A stretch of DNA of 64,000 bases from a virus (IMGVR_UViG_3300035171_000016:32001-96000), one strand, 5' to 3'; shown: positions 7,567-20,956, counted from the first letter of the stretch. The notes: a model not told the origin generated them from the sequence alone. Numbers and translations: made by a program.

Positions 7567-8714
7567 ATTATTTTAATAAAAAACCACAACTACAAACAAA
7601 ATCGCCGCCAGAATTAGAATATTTAATAAACAAAAGACCGTTTTTACAATTAGGACATTTAATAGAAGTATTTCTATTTTCTCTATTTACCATAAAAGGA
7701 TTTTCTTTAACAAAATTAGCCTGAACCGGAATATTATTATTCTTCATTTTTCTTTTTGGCTTTATGGCTATAAAAAATACTAATTGTTAAATAATCATCG
7801 GTATACTCGCCCTCGCCAGAAGAACTTTGGCTTTGTAGAATATTTTCGATTTTTACATTATTTTTATAAAGAAAATCATTAATAGCATCTTCCATATAAA
7901 AGACTTGATTACCTATTTTTTCGTAATTTATAACGCCATTTTTAGATTTAAAAATTTTACAGAACATTAGGTTAGTTTATTATTGTTTTGTTTTTAAGTC
8001 AAGTTAAATTTCAGTATTTGTATCAGATTCTTTATTTTTATTTCCATTTAGGATTTTTTTTGATAAAGAAGTAACAAATAGGTTTTTTTGTTGAGCCTGC
8101 CAATTTTTAACTTTATTATCAAATTCCGCACACTTTTTAACTTCCCATTTGATTTTCTTATCTAAATTTACTATTTCAGCATGAGTTCTTTCAGCTCTTT
8201 CCTGTAATTCATCTGTAAAATTAGTTTCAAGAGTTTTTAAAATATACTCTAATTCGGCATTTTTTCTTTTAATTAAAGACGTTAGGAATGCGCTAGTTGA
8301 CGACAAAAGAGAATATTCATTACTAATATCTTTTTCAGAAATTTTCTTGATTCTCTTTTTGTTCATGTCAGTATTTACACTTTCAAACATATAATAGTAA
8401 GATATTATTTATTATTGATATAGTTTATATAATTATTGCAAATTTTATTAAGATTTTTTAATTCTTGGTTTTTTCGATATTGTTTTGTTTTTTCTATCCA
8501 TAATCTATAATTAGATTGCCTGAAAATGTAGCAGGTAGTTCGACAAAGTAGTTTAGTTACTAACGCCGAAATATAGAAATAATGATTAGTAATATTAAAT
8601 CTTTTAATTCTATTATGAATATTTGGGTCTCTAATTTCGATTCTTAATGAGTATTTTTTAATCATGTTTATAGTTTATAATAGCATATTTATTGTTTTTT
8701 GTCAATTAATACTT

Positions 8715-9425
8715 CTAATGCTTAACTTTTTCTAATGTCTCGACAATATACCTCACAATTCCAGAGCGCATAATATCTTCACTTGAAAGTTTAATATGAA
8801 TAATTCCCTGTTTGCGGCTATCCTCGTTATCAAATATATCAATTATTTGTTTAAATCCAGAATTACCATTAACATCAGATTGCATTGTGTCGCCAACAAG
8901 AATCATTTTAGAAAACTGGCCTATTCTAGTAATTAAGGTAACTAATTCTTTGTATGTAAAATTCTGGGTTTCGTCCGCAATAATAAACTTAGAATTAAAA
9001 GATGAACCACGAAGAAAGTTGACCGGCAAACATTTAATTCTATCTTCTTTAAAAAGCCTGTCTATTTCTAGTTTATTTAATAATTCATGTAGTTTATCTT
9101 CCAAAGGAATGATGAATGGCTTAAACTTATCAGACTCCGCTCCCGGAAGGAACCCTAGGCTTTTAGAGGCACTTTCAATAACGGTTCTGACATATAGAAG
9201 CTCGCTAACTCTTTTTTCCTGTAAATACTTTAGAGCAGCTAATACAGAAAGTAATGTTTTAGAGCTACCGGCGGGTCCAGAAATAAAGATTATTTTATTT
9301 TCTTTATTTAATAATTGCTTAATTATTTCTATTTGTCTTTCTGTCCATTTAAACTCTTTAATTTCAAAATTTTGACTAATCTTTTCACGTTGAACAACTC
9401 GAACGGACTTGTCTATTTTTTTCAT
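8715..9425 (-). CDS. phoH: PhoH-like ATPase
   Basis: GPAGSSKT, LGFLPG, FLRGSSF, DETQN, TRIG and GDTMQSD motifs. Confidence 0.95.
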   Translation of the reverse strand: MKKIDKSVRVVQREKISQNFEIKEFKWTERQIEIIKQLLNKENKIIFISGPAGSSKTLLSVLAALKYLQEKRVSELLYVRTVIESASKSLGFLPGAESDKFKPFIIPLEDKLHELLNKLEIDRLFKEDRIKCLPVNFLRGSSFNSKFIIADETQNFTYKELVTLITRIGQFSKMILVGDTMQSDVNGNSGFKQIIDIFDNEDSRKQGIIHIKLSSEDIMRSGIVRYIVETLEKVKH

Positions 9426-15567: not shown

Positions 15568-16200
15568 CTATTGAGCTAAGAACCAGAACCAATCTGGATG
15601 ACCTAAATGCTTAATAGTTAACGCTACAGGCATGGGAAGAGGCTCCTTATGGTTAAATAAAGGCTTTAAGCCTAACTCTTCCAAAGGTTTATTTCCACGC
15701 TTACTATTAATTTCGGCATCTACGAACATAAGATTTTCAAAAGTATCTTTTCCGCCGTGACTTTTGGCCTGCTTATGTTCAAGATTTCCTCTTTTAAAAG
15801 GAATTTTCTTGCCAGAATAGCCACATCTTCCGTCCTGCTTCTCGTAAAAGTACATTTTAGTTGGCCTAAACCTTTTTTTAGGTATTTTGCCATAATTTGT
15901 AACGATTACTGAAGGGCAACGAATTGTTAGTTTTGAAGTTCTAACTACATTATCTATTCCGACTCTTGGCTCAACCATTAACCATTCTTCAAAATCTAAA
16001 GCTTGGTAATAATCTAATTCGTTTAAATTTAATGAGCCGTCCTCATTTTTCTTATAAACGACATCAATAGCCTTTGCGGTAATAGTATAGTCGTTAGACT
16101 GGCTATTAAGCGCGACTAAAGCCTTCTTTGGTGAAAGAGTGCCGATACACTGGTAGCCTTTATTCAAGACTAATACTGATGATTTATTTAAATAGTCCAT
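15568..16200 (-). CDS. HNH endonuclease (McrA-like, VLVLN N-terminus)
   Basis: VLVLNKGYQ, CGYSG, NLEH...SHGGKDTFENL...NSKRGNK. Confidence 0.85.
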   Translation of the reverse strand: MDYLNKSSVLVLNKGYQCIGTLSPKKALVALNSQSNDYTITAKAIDVVYKKNEDGSLNLNELDYYQALDFEEWLMVEPRVGIDNVVRTSKLTIRCPSVIVTNYGKIPKKRFRPTKMYFYEKQDGRCGYSGKKIPFKRGNLEHKQAKSHGGKDTFENLMFVDAEINSKRGNKPLEELGLKPLFNHKEPLPMPVALTIKHLGHPDWFWFLAQ

Positions 16201-16440
16201 GTTATACTAGTTTCTATTTTATTTTTATTTAATTTGTCCCATTGTTTTAATGCGTAATATATTCTTTTAGTCGCGCTTCCAATTCTTTCTTTAGAAATAT
16301 CTCCGTGTGCATGAATTGTGCTTCTTAGTGCCCCGACAATAGCTTTTTCTAAACTTCCGCGTTTGTTTGTATTAAAATTAAAATTGTTCATTTATTAATA
16401 AAAAATAATAGATAAATATTAAAATGTCAAGAAATTAATT

Positions 16441-16691
16441 GAAACGCAGCCATAATCGCCGTTCTGTTTTATCTCTACATTTATCTCACTTTTCAGTGGC
16501 TAATCTTTATGATTAGCTGCTCCAACCTTTCCTTTACATCGGCCAGCACTAGCCTTTGGAACTTTAGGATTACTGCTAATTTGTGGTATTAATGAACGGG
16601 TGCAAAAGCAAGTACCGTTCTCCCAACATCTGCTATGCAGAGGCGAATTTCCTCAAATCATTTCTGACTTGCGTAGAGTCGCTTACGTTTC
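16441..16691 (-). ncRNA. rnpB: RNase P RNA (compact, about 251 nt)
   Basis: P1 GAAACGUA/UGCGUUUC. P2 CUCUAC/GUAGAG. P3 AAGUCA-GAAA-UGAUUU. CR-I GAGGAAAUUCGCC (16654-16642) pairs with CR-V ACAGAACGGCGAUUA (16467-16453) to form P4 with the bulged U. CR-IV AGAUAAAUG. P18 CACU-GAAA-AGUG. Confidence 0.88.
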
Positions 16692-17144
16692 AAAATTTAT
16701 TTTTTCTATAGTAGCGTCTGGATAAATAATTATAATTTTTTTCTTCATTTTCACAGCATACCTTTTGGTAGACCATGTTCCTGACCTAAGTTGTTCAATT
16801 TTTTCTTTAGGACAAACAATTAATAATTCAGATTCGTTAACAATATCTTTATTTCTATCTAAATACGGTTTTGACGGCAAAATTGTTTTAGCTTTACAAA
16901 AGGCTCGTTTAACCTCATTAATTGGTGGATGAATAATAATTTTTCCTAAAAATTTATTCTTATTTTGAATAAAATAAAAAACAGATAAATTATGAGCATC
17001 ATAATCAGCCCCTAAACAATCTCCATGATGAAATTCTCTACAGTCTAACGTAAACAAAAAAATAAAAAATATATTCTTTTGTTCCTGAGTCATTCCTGCC
17101 TGTGTTCCAGTAAATCCTATAACCATATAATTTATAATTTCCAA
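16683..17144 (-). CDS. SLOG superfamily (YspA/DprA-like) nucleotide-binding protein
   Basis: IGFTGTQ, HHGDCLGAD, RNKDIV and RSGTWST motifs; its stop codon lies inside P1 of the RNase P RNA. Confidence 0.75.
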   Translation of the reverse strand: MEIINYMVIGFTGTQAGMTQEQKNIFFIFLFTLDCREFHHGDCLGADYDAHNLSVFYFIQNKNKFLGKIIIHPPINEVKRAFCKAKTILPSKPYLDRNKDIVNESELLIVCPKEKIEQLRSGTWSTKRYAVKMKKKIIIIYPDATIEKINFET

Positions 17145-17560
17145 TTATCTTGATTATCCTCAAGTCTAGAATTAAACCATCCATAAAAACCAGAAGGAAA
17201 AGAGGCAAATATAATAGACATAAAAATACAAAATAATACTCTAATAGGCCACAATGCTACCCATCCAACCCACCAAGTTATAGTTTTTTTAGTCATATAA
17301 ATATGATAATATTGTTATTTTAAAAAGTCAAGATATATAAAAACAAAAAATCCATCAGAAACTAATCTGATGGATTTGATTTATTAAAAAAATTTATGAC
17401 AATTGTTTTATTACATTTGCCGCAAGATATTGTATCTGGAATAAATCCGGTAGTAGCCCATTTTTGAAAATGGCCGCATTTACATTTTAATTTAAATTGA
17501 GGAACTTGGCCGTATACACCGACCTTGCGACTTCTAATTCTTATTGCGTTTTTCATAAAA

Positions 17561-17639: not shown

Positions 17640-17714
17640 TGGAGGGAAAGCCGGAACTTGCATCCGGTTGACAATATTACCAATATTGCGTTTTACTATA
17701 TAAACCACAATCCC
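17640..17714 (-). tRNA. tRNA-Thr(GGT), U-U mismatches in acceptor stem
   Basis: CAATA-TTGGTAA-TATTG; encoded TCCA. Confidence 0.8.
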
Positions 17715-17945
17715 ATTTAAGCTATCCAGACATCAATCTATAATTACATCCGTATTTTTCTTTAAAAACTTCGTTTTCTTTTTTACCATGAACTTTTGGC
17801 CAGCCTTGTTCTTCCCATATAATACAATACTCGCAAATACCATGAATAATAATCAAATCACGCCCGCATTCTGGACACTGATTTTTTAGATAATATTTGC
17901 GTCCAAAAGTAAAATCTTTCATATATTTAATTATGTTAGGTAACA

Positions 17946-18025
17946 TGGCGAAGTTGGCGAGAGTCGAACTCGCATAATTTCCAATTATGCACTTACTGTT
18001 TAGGAAACAGAGCCATTACAACTTC
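17946..18025 (-). tRNA. Non-canonical tRNA-Arg(CCT) with D-loop relocated 3' of the anticodon arm
   Basis: Acceptor GAAGTTG/CAACTTC; T-arm GCGAG-TTCGACT-CTCGC; anticodon loop TTCCTAA; only 7 nt before the anticodon stem; GCCA end. Confidence 0.75.
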
Positions 18026-18054
18026 AAAATTAATAATAATTAAAATAACTTCCT

Positions 18055-18336
18055 TTACCATAAATGAGAAAAATCAATCTCTCTGGTTCCAACTTGAATG
18101 CCTATGCTCCCATTTAGAGTCGAAAGATGCGTGGCCGTTAGAAAAGAAAAGAAAAGAAAAGAAAAGAAAAGAAAAGAAAAGAAAAGAAATGAACTATGAT
18201 TAGGACATTCAAAATAGAATAGGTCATTCCCACTTCTTTCTCCAGTTAAGGGGTCGAACTTGATTTCCACAGAATACTCTTTTATAATAAGAGGGCTTCT
18301 GCATTTCTCACAAAAAACATCAGATTTAGTTTTCAT
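18055..18336 (-). CDS. Small Zn-ribbon protein containing a pentanucleotide repeat tract
   Basis: CEKC...CPNH followed by (TTTTC)9. Confidence 0.5.
   Translation of the reverse strand: MKTKSDVFCEKCRSPLIIKEYSVEIKFDPLTGERSGNDLFYFECPNHSSFLFFSFLFFSFLFFSFLTATHLSTLNGSIGIQVGTREIDFSHLW
18141..18185. repeat. (GAAAA)9 simple sequence repeat
   Basis: Nine perfect tandem units. Confidence 0.95.
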
Positions 18337-18352
18337 ATTTTGTTTTATAAAA

Positions 18353-18444
18353 TGGCGGATACAGAAGGGGATGCTCCCTCACTGGCTGTTAAACCAGAAC
18401 ACTTTAGCAAAGTGCCGCGCCAAGCTGATATGCGCCTTGTATCC
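18353..18444 (-). tRNA. tRNA-Ser(GCT)
   Basis: GCACT-TTGCTAA-AGTGT; long V-arm; G73; CCA. Confidence 0.9.
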
Positions 18445-18448
18445 AAAA

Positions 18449-18533
18449 TGGTAGCCACGGGGAGATTCGGACTCCCAAACCCATCCGGTTTAAGCGGATA
18501 TGCTGTTCCAGTTCGCAATGAGGGCACGCGGCC
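18449..18533 (-). tRNA. Atypical tRNA-Leu(TAA): 8-nt insertion after position 9, no V-arm hairpin
   Basis: ATCCG-CTTAAAC-CGGAT; A73; CCA. Confidence 0.8.
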
Positions 18534-18803
18534 ATTAAATTAACAAAATAAATACCTATAATATACTACCATCAAAACAAAATACAGAACTAATCCGGTA
18601 ACATATAATATTAGTTTAATTAAATCTTTAGAACTTATATTTTGTTCATAAAAATTATTTTCTTTTTCTGGTGGATATTTTGACCAATAATCTCCATCTG
18701 TTTTATACCATCCATCAAGAATGGCGCGATTACGATGTTTTTCTATCCAAGGTTCTTTCATATAAAAAGTATAATACTTTTATGCTTTAAAGTCAATACA
18801 AAT

Positions 18804-18878
18804 TGGTGCGCCTAGATGGTAACAATCCATCTTCTTTCGGGTAAGGGCCGATTGCTTCATCATTAAAGCTTTAAGCGC
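18804..18878 (-). tRNA. tRNA-Lys(CTT)
   Basis: Anticodon loop CCCTTAC (C33); ACCA end. Confidence 0.8.
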
Positions 18879-18882
18879 AAAA

Positions 18883-18961
18883 TGGTAGGCGATGCAAGGT
18901 GGGAACTTGCGGCATTTTCTTTGTAATAGAAATAGTCTTAACCCGTCTGACGTAATCGCCC
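18883..18961 (-). tRNA. tRNA-Val(TAC)
   Basis: TTTCT-ATTACAA-AGAAA; ACCA end. Confidence 0.8.
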
Positions 18962-18968
18962 ATAAAAT

Positions 18969-19046
18969 TGGTACTTCTACTATGTTACCAGCATAGATAA
19001 TTAGATTCAGAGTCTAATATAATTAAGGTATTTATATTATAGAAGT
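18969..19046 (-). tRNA. tRNA-Gln(CTG), divergent
   Basis: TTAGA-CTCTGAA-TCTAA; all stems pair; ACCA end. Confidence 0.7.
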
Positions 19047-19052
19047 ATGAAA

Positions 19053-19130
19053 TGGAGGACACGGGGAATTGGCTGCTCCCATAATGCTCATTACAAATAA
19101 GCTACTTTAAGCCATTTAAGCTACGAGTCC
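19053..19130 (-). tRNA. tRNA-Thr(TGT)
   Basis: GCTTA-TTTGTAA-TGAGC; TCCA end. Confidence 0.75.
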
Positions 19131-19660
19131 ATTAAAAATTATATTCTCTTTCGCTAATTAAAATTCCGTCTCTATAAACTTTGAACCAATCATAGGGCTG
19201 GCTTAATACAAAATTTTCACATTCAATAAAAGTATCTCTATACTCTTCTATTAAATCTAATCCTCGAATTTTGAGTTTAATTAAATATCGTTTCATAAAC
19301 ATCCACTATAATATTCTTCCCACATACCCTTCCAATATTTATCATTTTCTTCTTGGCATACTGGACATAAGATTGCAAAATTACTTTTATCTTCAACGTA
19401 ATTAGTATTTTGGCGACGTTTTATCGCACCTAACTTATTACAACAATCGCATCTAAGTTTTCTTTTCATTTAAATTAAATTTTGAATTAGGATTAGTATA
19501 ACACCATTCACATTGGACTTGAATTTGTATTTGTTCTCCATATTCATTATGAGTAGTTAAGTGTCCTACATACCATCCAACATTATCACAGTGAGGACAG
19601 TCTTGCCCCTCCTTATTACAATGCGAGCCATTTACAAATGTTGTTGGCTCAAACATAAAT

Positions 19661-19737
19661 TGGTCGCTAATCTTGGAATTAAACCAAGTAACTTGTCTTT
19701 ATGAGAGACAAAGCTCAATCAGTTGCGTTTATTAGCG
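19661..19737 (-). tRNA. tRNA-Met or Ile2 (CAT)
   Basis: TGTCT-CTCATAA-AGACA; ACCA end. Confidence 0.8.
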
Positions 19738-20167
19738 TTTATTAGCGTTTTTTAACTTCGTTTACTTTTACTTTGTAAATTTTAAATTTATTATTAGGTA
19801 ATTTAATCTTAAATGTAAATCCCTTTCCGTATGGTAGATATTTCCCATTAAAATTAATTTCTTTTATTACCCTATATTTTCTATTATAAGAACGATTTAG
19901 CTCTGCTTGTAATCCACAAAGAACTTTATCTCCGAGGGTCAAAGATATTAAATCTGGAATATATTCATTATCAAATTTATTCATAATATAATTCGGTTAT
20001 AAAATAGTTAATGATGGCAACAGCTTCCCACCATAGTAAACATAGAGAAAATAGCAATCCATGATAAGTTAATAGATATATCTTTTAAAATCTTTTTGAT
20101 TTCGTTAAATTGTTTATCGTTCATGTATTGATATTAATATAAAAAATATAAGAAGTCAATATTAAAA

Positions 20168-20243
20168 TGGCCCGGTTTATCCGAGTCGAACGGATTTCTC
20201 CTCCTCTTCAGGGAAGATACATGACCCCACATTAGCAAACCGG
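20168..20243 (-). tRNA. tRNA-Phe(GAA), atypical D region
   Basis: CTTCC-CTGAAGA-GGAGG; T-loop TTCGACT; GCCA end. Confidence 0.75.
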
Positions 20244-20247
20244 AAAC

Positions 20248-20323
20248 TGGCGCGGGTTTCGCTTGAATTGAAATGTATCAACTCAACCAAGTTCCTTTTG
20301 TCTAACTTGGAATAGGAGCCCGC
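20248..20323 (-). ncRNA. 76-nt CCA-terminated tRNA-like RNA without a recognisable T-arm
   Basis: GCGGG/CCCGC terminal stem, G-CCA end, two internal hairpins; spaced like a tRNA within the array. Confidence 0.55.
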
Positions 20324-20328
20324 ATAAA

Positions 20329-20405
20329 TGGTACAGTCGGTAGGAGTTGCACCCACATAATTCTCCTTAGAACGGAGTTCCCTAATCTATTCGAGGCACG
20401 GCTGC
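20329..20405 (-). tRNA. tRNA-Arg(TCT)
   Basis: Anticodon loop GTTCTAA; A20; ACCA end. Confidence 0.85.
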
Positions 20406-20412
20406 ATTAAAA

Positions 20413-20490
20413 TGGACGACCTATCTAGTCGGGAGCTAGAAAATAGACTTTCAAAGAGTCCTGTGTTTAACCCACTTACACTATAGGTCG
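20413..20490 (-). tRNA. tRNA-Gln(TTG)
   Basis: GGACT-CTTTGAA-AGTCT; its 5' end overlaps the last codons of the HNH ORF. Confidence 0.8.
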
Positions 20491-20889
20491 AGCTTTGTGT
20501 GGACAGGTTCCGCCGTTAATTTGCCTACCACAATTACAATTAAAGCATAAAATTCGATAACCGGATGGAAAATTATTTCTAATGATATTAATTAATATAT
20601 TTCTAGAGCCGTTAAATTTTTTTCTTTCTTTGTTTCCGTTATTATTAATATGGTCAACCGTAAGAAATTGATAAGTATCTTCCCCGCAGCATTCACATTT
20701 ATTGCCATAGTGTTCTATTACAGTTTTTCTTATTTTGTTGCAATATCTTTTTGAATTTTCTTTGTAATTGGGGTCTGATTTTGAGCGACATTTCCAGCAT
20801 ACAGAGCGAAATAATGGCTCTCCATTTTCCTTATAATTTGCTATTTCCGCATCTTTTTCTTTACATATTTTACATTTTGGTCTATTCAT
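20476..20889 (-). CDS. HNH endonuclease
   Basis: CECCGE...LTVDHINNNG...YRILCFNCN. Confidence 0.85.
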   Translation of the reverse strand: MNRPKCKICKEKDAEIANYKENGEPLFRSVCWKCRSKSDPNYKENSKRYCNKIRKTVIEHYGNKCECCGEDTYQFLTVDHINNNGNKERKKFNGSRNILINIIRNNFPSGYRILCFNCNCGRQINGGTCPHKARPIV

Positions 20890-20956
20890 AATGGTATTTA
20901 CACTAAATCCATACCACTTTATAAAATATTAAAAAATGATTGTATATATCTATTAT

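Follow-up and report, generated by a model that had tools for sequence, protein, structure and literature searches.

The sequence analyzed here, referred to as the window, is a 64,000-nucleotide stretch of DNA corresponding to bases 32001-96000 of a 147,760-bp IMG/VR virus record (31% G+C), the completeness of which is estimated by CheckV at 95%. Genes in the record code for a large terminase, a DNA polymerase, a nicotinamide phosphoribosyltransferase, a DnaB-like helicase, a UvsX-like recombinase, a ribonucleotide reductase, and a homing endonuclease. Given the terminase, DNA polymerase, UvsX, DnaB, and homing endonucleases and the high completeness estimate, the contig is that of a large, uncultured soil phage. 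Several rhizosphere metagenome DNA runs contain the phage, whereas no RNA run is listed as containing it, which counts neither for nor against expression. Over the parts that they cover, contigs assembled from the DNA of other rhizosphere runs do not differ from the locus and hence offer no natural variants. The feature under study is a 251-nt RNA gene at positions 16441-16691 on the minus strand of the window, such that position n of the RNA corresponds to window position 16692-n. All features of the window described below lie on this strand.

The RNA gene is preceded by an open reading frame (ORF) of 153 codons for amino acids (16683-17144), the stop codon of which falls inside the first helix of the RNA, P1; over its first 9 nt, the RNA shares sequence with the final two codons and the stop of this ORF, which belongs to the context of the RNA and is not a part of it. 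The preliminary description of the locus had noted an overlap of the 5' end with a SLOG gene: the overlap is real, but the SLOG identity found no backing, with no match of the ORF to Pfam (E ≤ 0.01) or PHROG (E ≤ 0.001). Neither this ORF nor the DnaB-like helicase, when used as queries, retrieved relatives in IMG/VR. Downstream of the RNA are a 67-aa ORF (16188-16391) and, beyond it, a gene for an HNH endonuclease (15568-16200; PHROG 16726, E 3.6e-14), and phage RNase P RNA genes may be homing targets. A terminator-like hairpin of 12 bp (17348-17377) lies upstream of the ORFs and the RNA and is followed by a promoter-like site, TTGACT-17-TATCAT (17303-17331), whereas a second such site, TTGACA-17-TATTTT (16402-16430), starts 11 nt past the 3' end of the RNA; both are consensus matches only. 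The two sites (17331-17303 and 16430-16402) frame a unit consisting of the ORF and the RNA, although their frequency is not above that in shuffled sequence, and the promoter and terminator scan of the locus as a whole returned no more sites than shuffled sequence did. No terminator was found directly behind the 251-nt RNA.

ARAGORN predicts 12 tRNA genes in the window (17640-26908), all co-oriented with the RNA, of which 6 pass the Rfam cut-off. Within the window, the RNA thus follows an ORF rather than a tRNA and is located about 870 nt beyond the last tRNA gene. The CCA end is encoded in 12 of the 12 tRNAs. The T loop is non-canonical in about half of the 12 (UGCAAGU and AGCAUAA are examples), and the tRNA arrays of the related phages considered below score far higher than that of the window.

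Anatomy of the RNA

The catalytic domain can be followed helix by helix, and for each helix we give the number of pairs with compensatory changes in an alignment of 19 related sequences (see the next section). P1 is formed by nt 1-11, with A9 bulged (16681-16691), and nt 242-251 (16441-16450); 10 of 10 pairs form in the window copy, and all 10 are compensatory in the family. P2 (nt 14-19, 16673-16678, with its partner at 16473-16478) is paired in 100% of the 19 sequences and compensatory at 5 of 6 pairs, and the short P3 hairpin, of 7 bp with a GAAA loop (nt 21-38, 16654-16671), is likewise 100% paired and compensatory at 5 of 7. P1, P2, and P3 are nested around P4. The 5' strand of P4, which includes CR-I and the bulged U, reads GAGGAAAUUCGCC (nt 38-50, 16642-16654), and the segment carrying J2/4, CR-V, and the 3' strand of P4 reads ACAGAACGGCGAUUA (nt 225-239, 16453-16467). 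The resulting pseudoknot, of the form GAGGAAA..UC.. with ACAGAA....UUA, joins GAGGAAAUUCGCC to GGCGAUUA around the bulged U, and all 7 of its pairs form.

P5, which consists of CUGC (nt 52-55, 16637-16640) and GCAG (16573-16576), is 100% paired and compensatory at 4 of 4 pairs. It is followed, after an AUA linker, by AGCA (nt 58-61, 16631-16634), the 5' strand of P6, located in J5/7, which forms a pseudoknot with the UGCU of the P17 loop (16545-16548). J5/15 is UAA (nt 120-122, 16570-16572), the counterpart of A248/A249 in Escherichia coli; it is (C/U)AA in the family and GCAA in the RF00010 consensus. Next comes the P15-P16-P17 arm (nt 123-171, 16521-16569), in which P15 (UCC/GGA, 16567-16569 and 16521-16523) encloses J15/16 (UAAAG), P16 (UUCC/GGAA), P17 (GGCU/GGCC), and the loop that forms P6. 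Compensatory changes affect 4 of 4 pairs in P16 and 3 of 4 in P17, and P15 is UUC/GAA in the homolog L007, a compensatory change, and CUC/GAG in the homolog L012. An initial assignment of P15 to CCU/AGG was dropped in favor of UCC/GGA after comparison with L007, L012, and the RF00010 consensus.

Just 5' of the P15 3' strand, in J16/15, is a GGU (nt 165-167, 16525-16527), the putative partner of the tRNA 3' ACC, at a position of the P15/16 internal loop that matches 'CGGGUaggc' in RF00010. The GGU is invariant in the 19 family members, which is in part a matter of ascertainment, since one of our scans required GGTTGRAGC, but L007, L011, and L012, retrieved with another pattern, have it as well; in L012, it is seen in the sequence, and it is also found in the RF00010 alignment of the class A copy L014. 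The encoded CCA ends of all 12 window tRNAs fit a working GGU in the RNA. Between P15 and P18 lies an extra 7-bp hairpin (nt 175-193, 16499-16517; 5 of 7 pairs compensatory), GCUAAUC-AUAAA-GAUUAGC, which had been taken for a plain P15 hairpin without the GGU, with P16 and P17 thought to be absent. Both of these earlier readings need correction: the hairpin is an additional helix, the actual P15 is accompanied by the GGU, and P16 and P17, together with the P6 pseudoknot, are present and covary. P18, of 4 bp with a GAAA loop (nt 194-205, 16487-16498), is 100% paired and compensatory at 3 of 4 pairs, and J18/2 (CR-IV), AGAUAAAU (nt 206-213, 16479-16486), is identical in L014. The RNA contains both the J18/2 motif AGAUAAAUG (AGA.AAUG) and the J2/4 motif ACAGAA, and the landmarks listed in the preliminary description, namely P1, P2, the short P3, P4 with its bulged U, the J18/2 motif, and the GAAA-capped P18, are all in the sequence. 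In combination with the topology, GAGGAA.., the (N)AA of J5/15, the UAAA of J15/16, the GGU, AGAUAAAUG, and ACAGAA read as the signature of a type A catalytic domain.

The specificity domain is pruned to 54 nt between P6 and the 3' strand of P5 (nt 62-115, 16577-16630). It holds a P10/11-like stem (UGG/CCA), an internal loop (GA / AUUAAUA), and a P12-like hairpin, which is 27 nt long here and 10-140 nt long in relatives and has compensatory changes at 5 of 6 stem pairs; among distant members, covariation is seen in stem S1 (GUAG/CUAC). The conserved junction sequences of the domain are UUGGGAG and CGNUAANACCAC, and the 3' side of the internal loop, CGNUAANACC, resembles the 'gGcAAaCC' strand of type A. 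P8, P9, P13, P14, and the canonical CR-II/CR-III junctions are absent, and P7 is represented by a weak 3-bp candidate at most (GAU/AUU), leaving the domain well short of a full type A specificity domain, with P7-P11 including P8 and P9, P12-P14, and CR-II/CR-III. That the domain is divergent had been recognized from the start. It had further been suggested to be possibly adapted to non-canonical elbows; on such a reading, the domain was remodeled for tRNAs with odd T and D loops that are poorly handled by host RNase P. The specificity domain (P9-P11) normally touches the T loop (PMC10731613) and is reduced here, only 6 of the window tRNAs pass Rfam as against 12 called by ARAGORN, and several T loops are non-canonical. 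However, the identical pruned domain and junction sequences are found in relatives whose arrays hold ordinary tRNAs, such as L139, with 29 ARAGORN tRNAs scoring about 39-70 bits with Rfam. For this reason, the reduction of the domain predates, and is independent of, the odd tRNAs of this phage, and we consider specialization for such elbows unlikely. At most, the reduced domain may have relaxed a constraint, letting the elbows drift.

Homologs, covariation, and tRNA context

At gathering thresholds, Rfam identified only tRNAs in the window and no RNase P RNA. With permissive filters, RF00373 (RNaseP_arch) aligned end to end with 16441-16691 on the minus strand, at 18.3 bits compared with a cut-off of 84 bits, and in the whole 148-kb genome its single match was this locus (E 2.1e-4). 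RF00010 and RF00011 had no match in the phage genome, and the 251-nt RNA stays below the gathering threshold of RF00010 (100 bits). The covariance models thus delimit exactly the element that had been described and single it out in the genome, but do so below the cut-off and through RF00373 only. The minimum free energy z-score of the RNA is modest (-2.56), and blastn of the locus against 50,697 GenBank phages returned no match.

A covariance model, R1, was built with the window RNA as its only sequence and a hand-drawn RNase-P-type structure with the pseudoknots left out (self-score of 331.6 bits). R1 matched L014, an Rfam-validated phage class A RNase P RNA (191.5 bits with RF00010), over its full length at 33.2 bits (E 6.9e-9), and scored L007 at 105 bits, L011 at 51 bits, and L012 at 29 bits, all of them family members. 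A family HMM made without the window copy had this locus as its sole match in the genome (nhmmer, E 4.2e-45); at E ≤ 1e-3, no canonical RNase P RNA was among the matches of the sequence-only family HMM. Among 13 relatives searched with Rfam, none matched an RNase P model, seven of them not even at E ≤ 10. The formal link to canonical RNase P is therefore made up of the 18-bit Rfam match, the match between R1 and L014, and the shared pseudoknotted topology, as modeled here. Since the Rfam scores are sub-threshold for the window RNA and matches are missing in relatives, the assignment to RNase P rests on the structural reading. The whole family of phage mini-RNase P RNAs is missed by Rfam-based annotation.

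Homologs were sought in IMG/VR in two ways. The first scan, for both P4 strands at a spacing of 160-190 nt, returned 10 viral stretches, of which only L007 was genuine, its helices being visibly compensated; other P4 spacings yielded five more stretches, L011-L015. L013-L015 are full-length matches to RF00010, with L014 (191.5 bits) and L015 (176.6 bits) being near-canonical class A RNAs and L013 scoring 26 bits, and L011 and L012 are full-length matches to R1 with no Rfam RNase P match. Because L014 and L015 are near-canonical and L011 and L012 invisible to Rfam, phage contigs carry RNase P RNAs ranging from canonical to strongly reduced. The second scan used a J15/18-J18/2-ACAGAA motif in which the P4 helix is not involved (GGTTGRAGC, gap, GAGANANATG, gap, ACAGAA) and returned 28 contigs; R1 matched 24 of the 26 that were newly fetched, at 64.7-184.3 bits. 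Homologs are present in at least 25 other viral contigs, and members of the family are 209-367 nt long. As a control, the same motif was searched in 185,579 bacterial and archaeal species genomes, where it occurs in 35 stretches, none of which (0/35) is matched by R1; a true rnpB was found in 1 of the 18 control stretches checked with Rfam. Since the cellular motif stretches give no R1 matches, the motif alone does not create them, and the mini-RNase P RNA family appears to be phage-specific.

In metagenomes, a scan for the P4 pattern returned 97 stretches, nearly all of them small cellular RNase P RNAs, and the sole family member among them, L093, is a second copy of L007. In three metagenome contigs (L078, L082, and L109), a small G+C-rich element with canonical P4 strands, GAGGAAAGUCCCCGGGC ... 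ACAGAACGGGGCUUA, in 176-nt matches, occurs three times in tandem at intervals of about 460-470 nt; such repeated mini RNase-P-like units are unusual. Close relatives of the window RNA carry insertions of 60-140 nt in the P12-like hairpin (L117 3978-4344, L126 11157-11519, and L120, L122, and L115), and the window copy is among the shortest of its subgroup.

The abundance of P4 motifs in small cellular RNase P RNAs of metagenomes, along with the best Rfam match belonging to a cellular family, could suggest that a bacterial or archaeal rnpB was mis-binned or mis-assembled into a viral contig. Yet phage genes surround the locus on a single 148-kb contig with terminase, DNA polymerase, and homing endonucleases, identical fragments recur in other rhizosphere runs, and homologs come from at least 25 other viral contigs, with none found among the 185,579 species genomes by the family motif. 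A cellular origin of the locus through such an error is, in our estimation, exceedingly improbable.

The alignment of 19 sequences (A5) was fitted to the nested helices of R1, which favors those helices, and standard pairs occupy 94.5% of its cells, compared with 35-45% after displacement of the 3' partners by 1-3 columns. Compensatory changes are found in 55 of 71 pairs across the 19 sequences, including the P4 and P6 pseudoknots, and none of 500 shuffles reached any of the observed measures. P4 and P6 are absent from R1, so their covariation is unbiased. All pairs of P4 form in 18 sequences (100%), and compensatory changes affect 5 of the 7, with strand pairs such as CGCC/GGCG, CGAU/AUCG, CAAG/CUUG, CGAG/CUCG, and CGGC/GCCG; the second pair of the helix is A-U in the window RNA as opposed to G-C in most relatives. 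In P6, 3 of 4 core pairs are compensatory, the strand pairs including AGCA/UGCU, AAACA/UGUUU, AACUC/GAGUU, AAACC/GGUUU, CCGCU/AGCGG, and UUGCU/AGCAA. The window copy itself is intact at all 62 modeled pairs, at 7 of 7 pairs of P4, and at the 4 pairs of P6. This integrity, together with the extensive compensatory evolution of the family, speaks strongly against a chance resemblance or a decaying, functionless relic, as might be read into the low Rfam score and the z-score of only -2.56, and we regard either as having a negligible probability. The comparative data instead show a fold maintained by selection across a phage-specific family located in, or adjoining, tRNA arrays.

At 16 of 19 related loci, the neighboring tRNA genes have the same orientation as the RNA, and a tRNA gene lies 4-10 nt from it in L114, L117, L132, and L133. 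Because of this co-orientation and, in several relatives, close spacing, the arrangement suggests that the RNA would be matured from a polycistronic tRNA transcript. Of the loci found through P4, L011, L013, L014, and L015 sit inside tRNA arrays, and no tRNA was found at the L012 locus. The topology, the core motifs, the covariation in 19 sequences, and the tRNA context at 16 of 19 loci bear out the central proposal of the preliminary description, a compact phage RNase P RNA beside a tRNA array.

Several further features accompany the phage RNase P RNAs. A tmRNA gene lies within a few kb of the RNA in L114, L115, L117, L120, L122, L011, and L014. L114 and L122 have a tRNA with a CUA (amber) anticodon, called tRNA-Pyl by ARAGORN, which hints at stop-codon reassignment or suppression. 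The L139 contig, which holds a close homolog of the 251-nt RNase P RNA, also encodes a GOLLD RNA (RF02032, 203 bits, above the cut-off) at 8285-8748 on the minus strand, inside the tRNA array.

Proposed function and protein partner

Overall, we think it likely that the locus is a functional gene for a miniature RNase P RNA, derived from the bacterial type A, in a lytic-type large phage. Against this reading stand the sub-threshold Rfam scores, the lack of Rfam RNase P matches in relatives, the missing helices of the specificity domain, the deviant P4, and the lack of a protein gene in the phage, as well as the setting of the RNA in the window, about 870 nt away from the nearest tRNA gene and across an ORF stop codon, with no terminator found right after it. 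In characterized RNase P, the bulged U of P4 is a binding site for catalytic metal ions, the GGU pairs with the tRNA 3' ACC, and A248 in J5/15 reads N(-1) (PMC10731613). All elements of the catalytic domain are present in the window RNA and under selection in the family, from which we infer that the product is an active RNase P RNA.

The RNase P protein families PF00825, PF01868, and PF01900 had no match in the phage genome, and PF00825 had none in the records of four relatives; the absence of rnpA, previously noted for the window, thus extends to the entire 148-kb genome. RnpA binds the leader, and RnpA proteins from different sources can replace each other (PMC10731613). As no RNase P protein gene was found in the phage, the most likely partner of the phage RNA would be the RnpA of the host. 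Under this scheme, the 251-nt RNA would be cut out of a longer transcript, would assemble with host RnpA, and would cleave the 5' leaders off the many CCA-ending pre-tRNAs of the phage. The likely benefit would be extra, or protected, capacity for 5' processing while tRNA transcripts flood the cell.

A rival reading is that of a decoy, an RNA that retains the core bound by the protein but mainly soaks up host RnpA and thereby shuts down the maturation of host tRNAs and of 4.5S RNA and tmRNA instead of processing phage tRNAs. The lack of an RNase P protein gene in the phage, the strong reduction of the specificity domain, and the conservation of P2, P3, J18/2, and J2/4 would all suit such a role. 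However, selection also acts on elements that serve only substrate binding or catalysis (the GGU, the adenines of J5/15, the bulged U, and P6 with P15-P17), and a decoy would starve the phage's own CCA-ending pre-tRNAs, which the gene accompanies. We therefore regard sequestration of RnpA as very unlikely and favor an active ribozyme.

A more far-reaching proposal, which we put forward as a speculation that is rather doubtful in its entirety, is that large, tRNA-rich phages carry their own RNase P ribozyme, of bacterial type and smaller than any cellular one, in which the elbow reader has been mostly shed and the protein is borrowed from the host or dispensed with. Maturation of phage tRNAs would then require neither the RNase P RNA of the host nor recognition of a canonical elbow, so that these tRNAs could diverge, as in this phage, and the supply of tRNAs could be kept running when the host tRNA pool or its processing is shut down or under attack. 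If correct, the set of translation-related genes carried by phages would be extended by a ribozyme, in the form of a virus-encoded RNase P RNA. Natural 'minimal' P RNAs of bacterial type, 209-367 nt in length and accompanied by covariation data, could help to define what the catalytic core needs. They also raise questions about the use of host RnpA, relaxed substrate recognition, and the outrunning of host shut-off or of tRNA-targeting defenses.

Comparison with known RNase P RNAs

In the prevailing view, RNase P RNA is a universal ribozyme of cells. Our full-text literature search found no description of a virus-encoded RNase P RNA, and the passages on phages in a 2024 review treat phage tRNAs only as substrates of host enzymes (PMC11143913).

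The closest known counterpart is the type A RNA (M1 RNA/rnpB of E. coli, Thermotoga maritima; RF00010), with which the phage RNA shares P1-P5 and the P4 pseudoknot, the P4 build of three pairs, a bulged U, and then four to five pairs, the P5-AUA-P6 layout with P6 pairing to the P17 loop, the P15-J15/16-P16-P17 arm with a GGU on the 3' side of the internal loop, a GNRA-capped P18, the (N)AA of J5/15, the J18/2 motif AGAUAAAUG, and ACAGAA. It differs from type A in its length (251 nt compared with about 350-400 nt), in the loss of P8, P9, P13, P14, and the canonical J11/12-J12/13 module, in a P7 of at most 3 bp, in the extra hairpin between P15 and P18, in having no match to RF00010, and in being encoded by a phage. 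Within P4, the pair equivalent to bacterial G68-C358 is U-A in the window RNA and U-G in the family, and the place of A67-U359 is taken by G-C in the family. The IMG/VR copies L014 and L015 resemble the window RNA in being phage-borne, with the same core, and lie in tRNA arrays beside tmRNA; unlike the window RNA and its family, they retain P7-P11, including P8 and P9, and score above the Rfam cut-off.

Other RNase P RNAs are more distant. Type B (Bacillus subtilis; RF00011) has P15.1 where the phage RNA has its extra hairpin, but type B includes P5.1, P10.1, and P19 and is without P6, P16, and P17, whereas the phage RNA has P6, P16, and P17. The full type B set (P5.1, P10.1, P15.1, and P19 in the absence of P6, P16, and P17) is not what the window RNA displays, and RF00011 does not match it. 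The archaeal type T RNase P RNA of Pyrobaculum, of about 200 nt, has almost no specificity domain, and the phage RNA is similar in being a natural RNase P RNA nearly without one; moreover, among the Rfam models, RF00373 alone aligns with the window RNA, albeit far below the cut-off. However, type T works with archaeal proteins, whereas the phage RNA has a P18-type hairpin and a bacterial-style arm with the GGU in J16/15. The RNase P RNA of Mycoplasma fermentans, of 276 nt, and the engineered 'Micro P' or catalytic-domain-only constructs have trimmed peripheral helices and are still active, illustrating that minimization is compatible with function; compared with the phage RNA, they are cellular or artificial and larger, and that of M. 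fermentans keeps P7-P10. The ribozyme family is thus a known one, and what is new relative to published knowledge is a phage-borne lineage with a pruned specificity domain and an extra helix that is invisible to Rfam.
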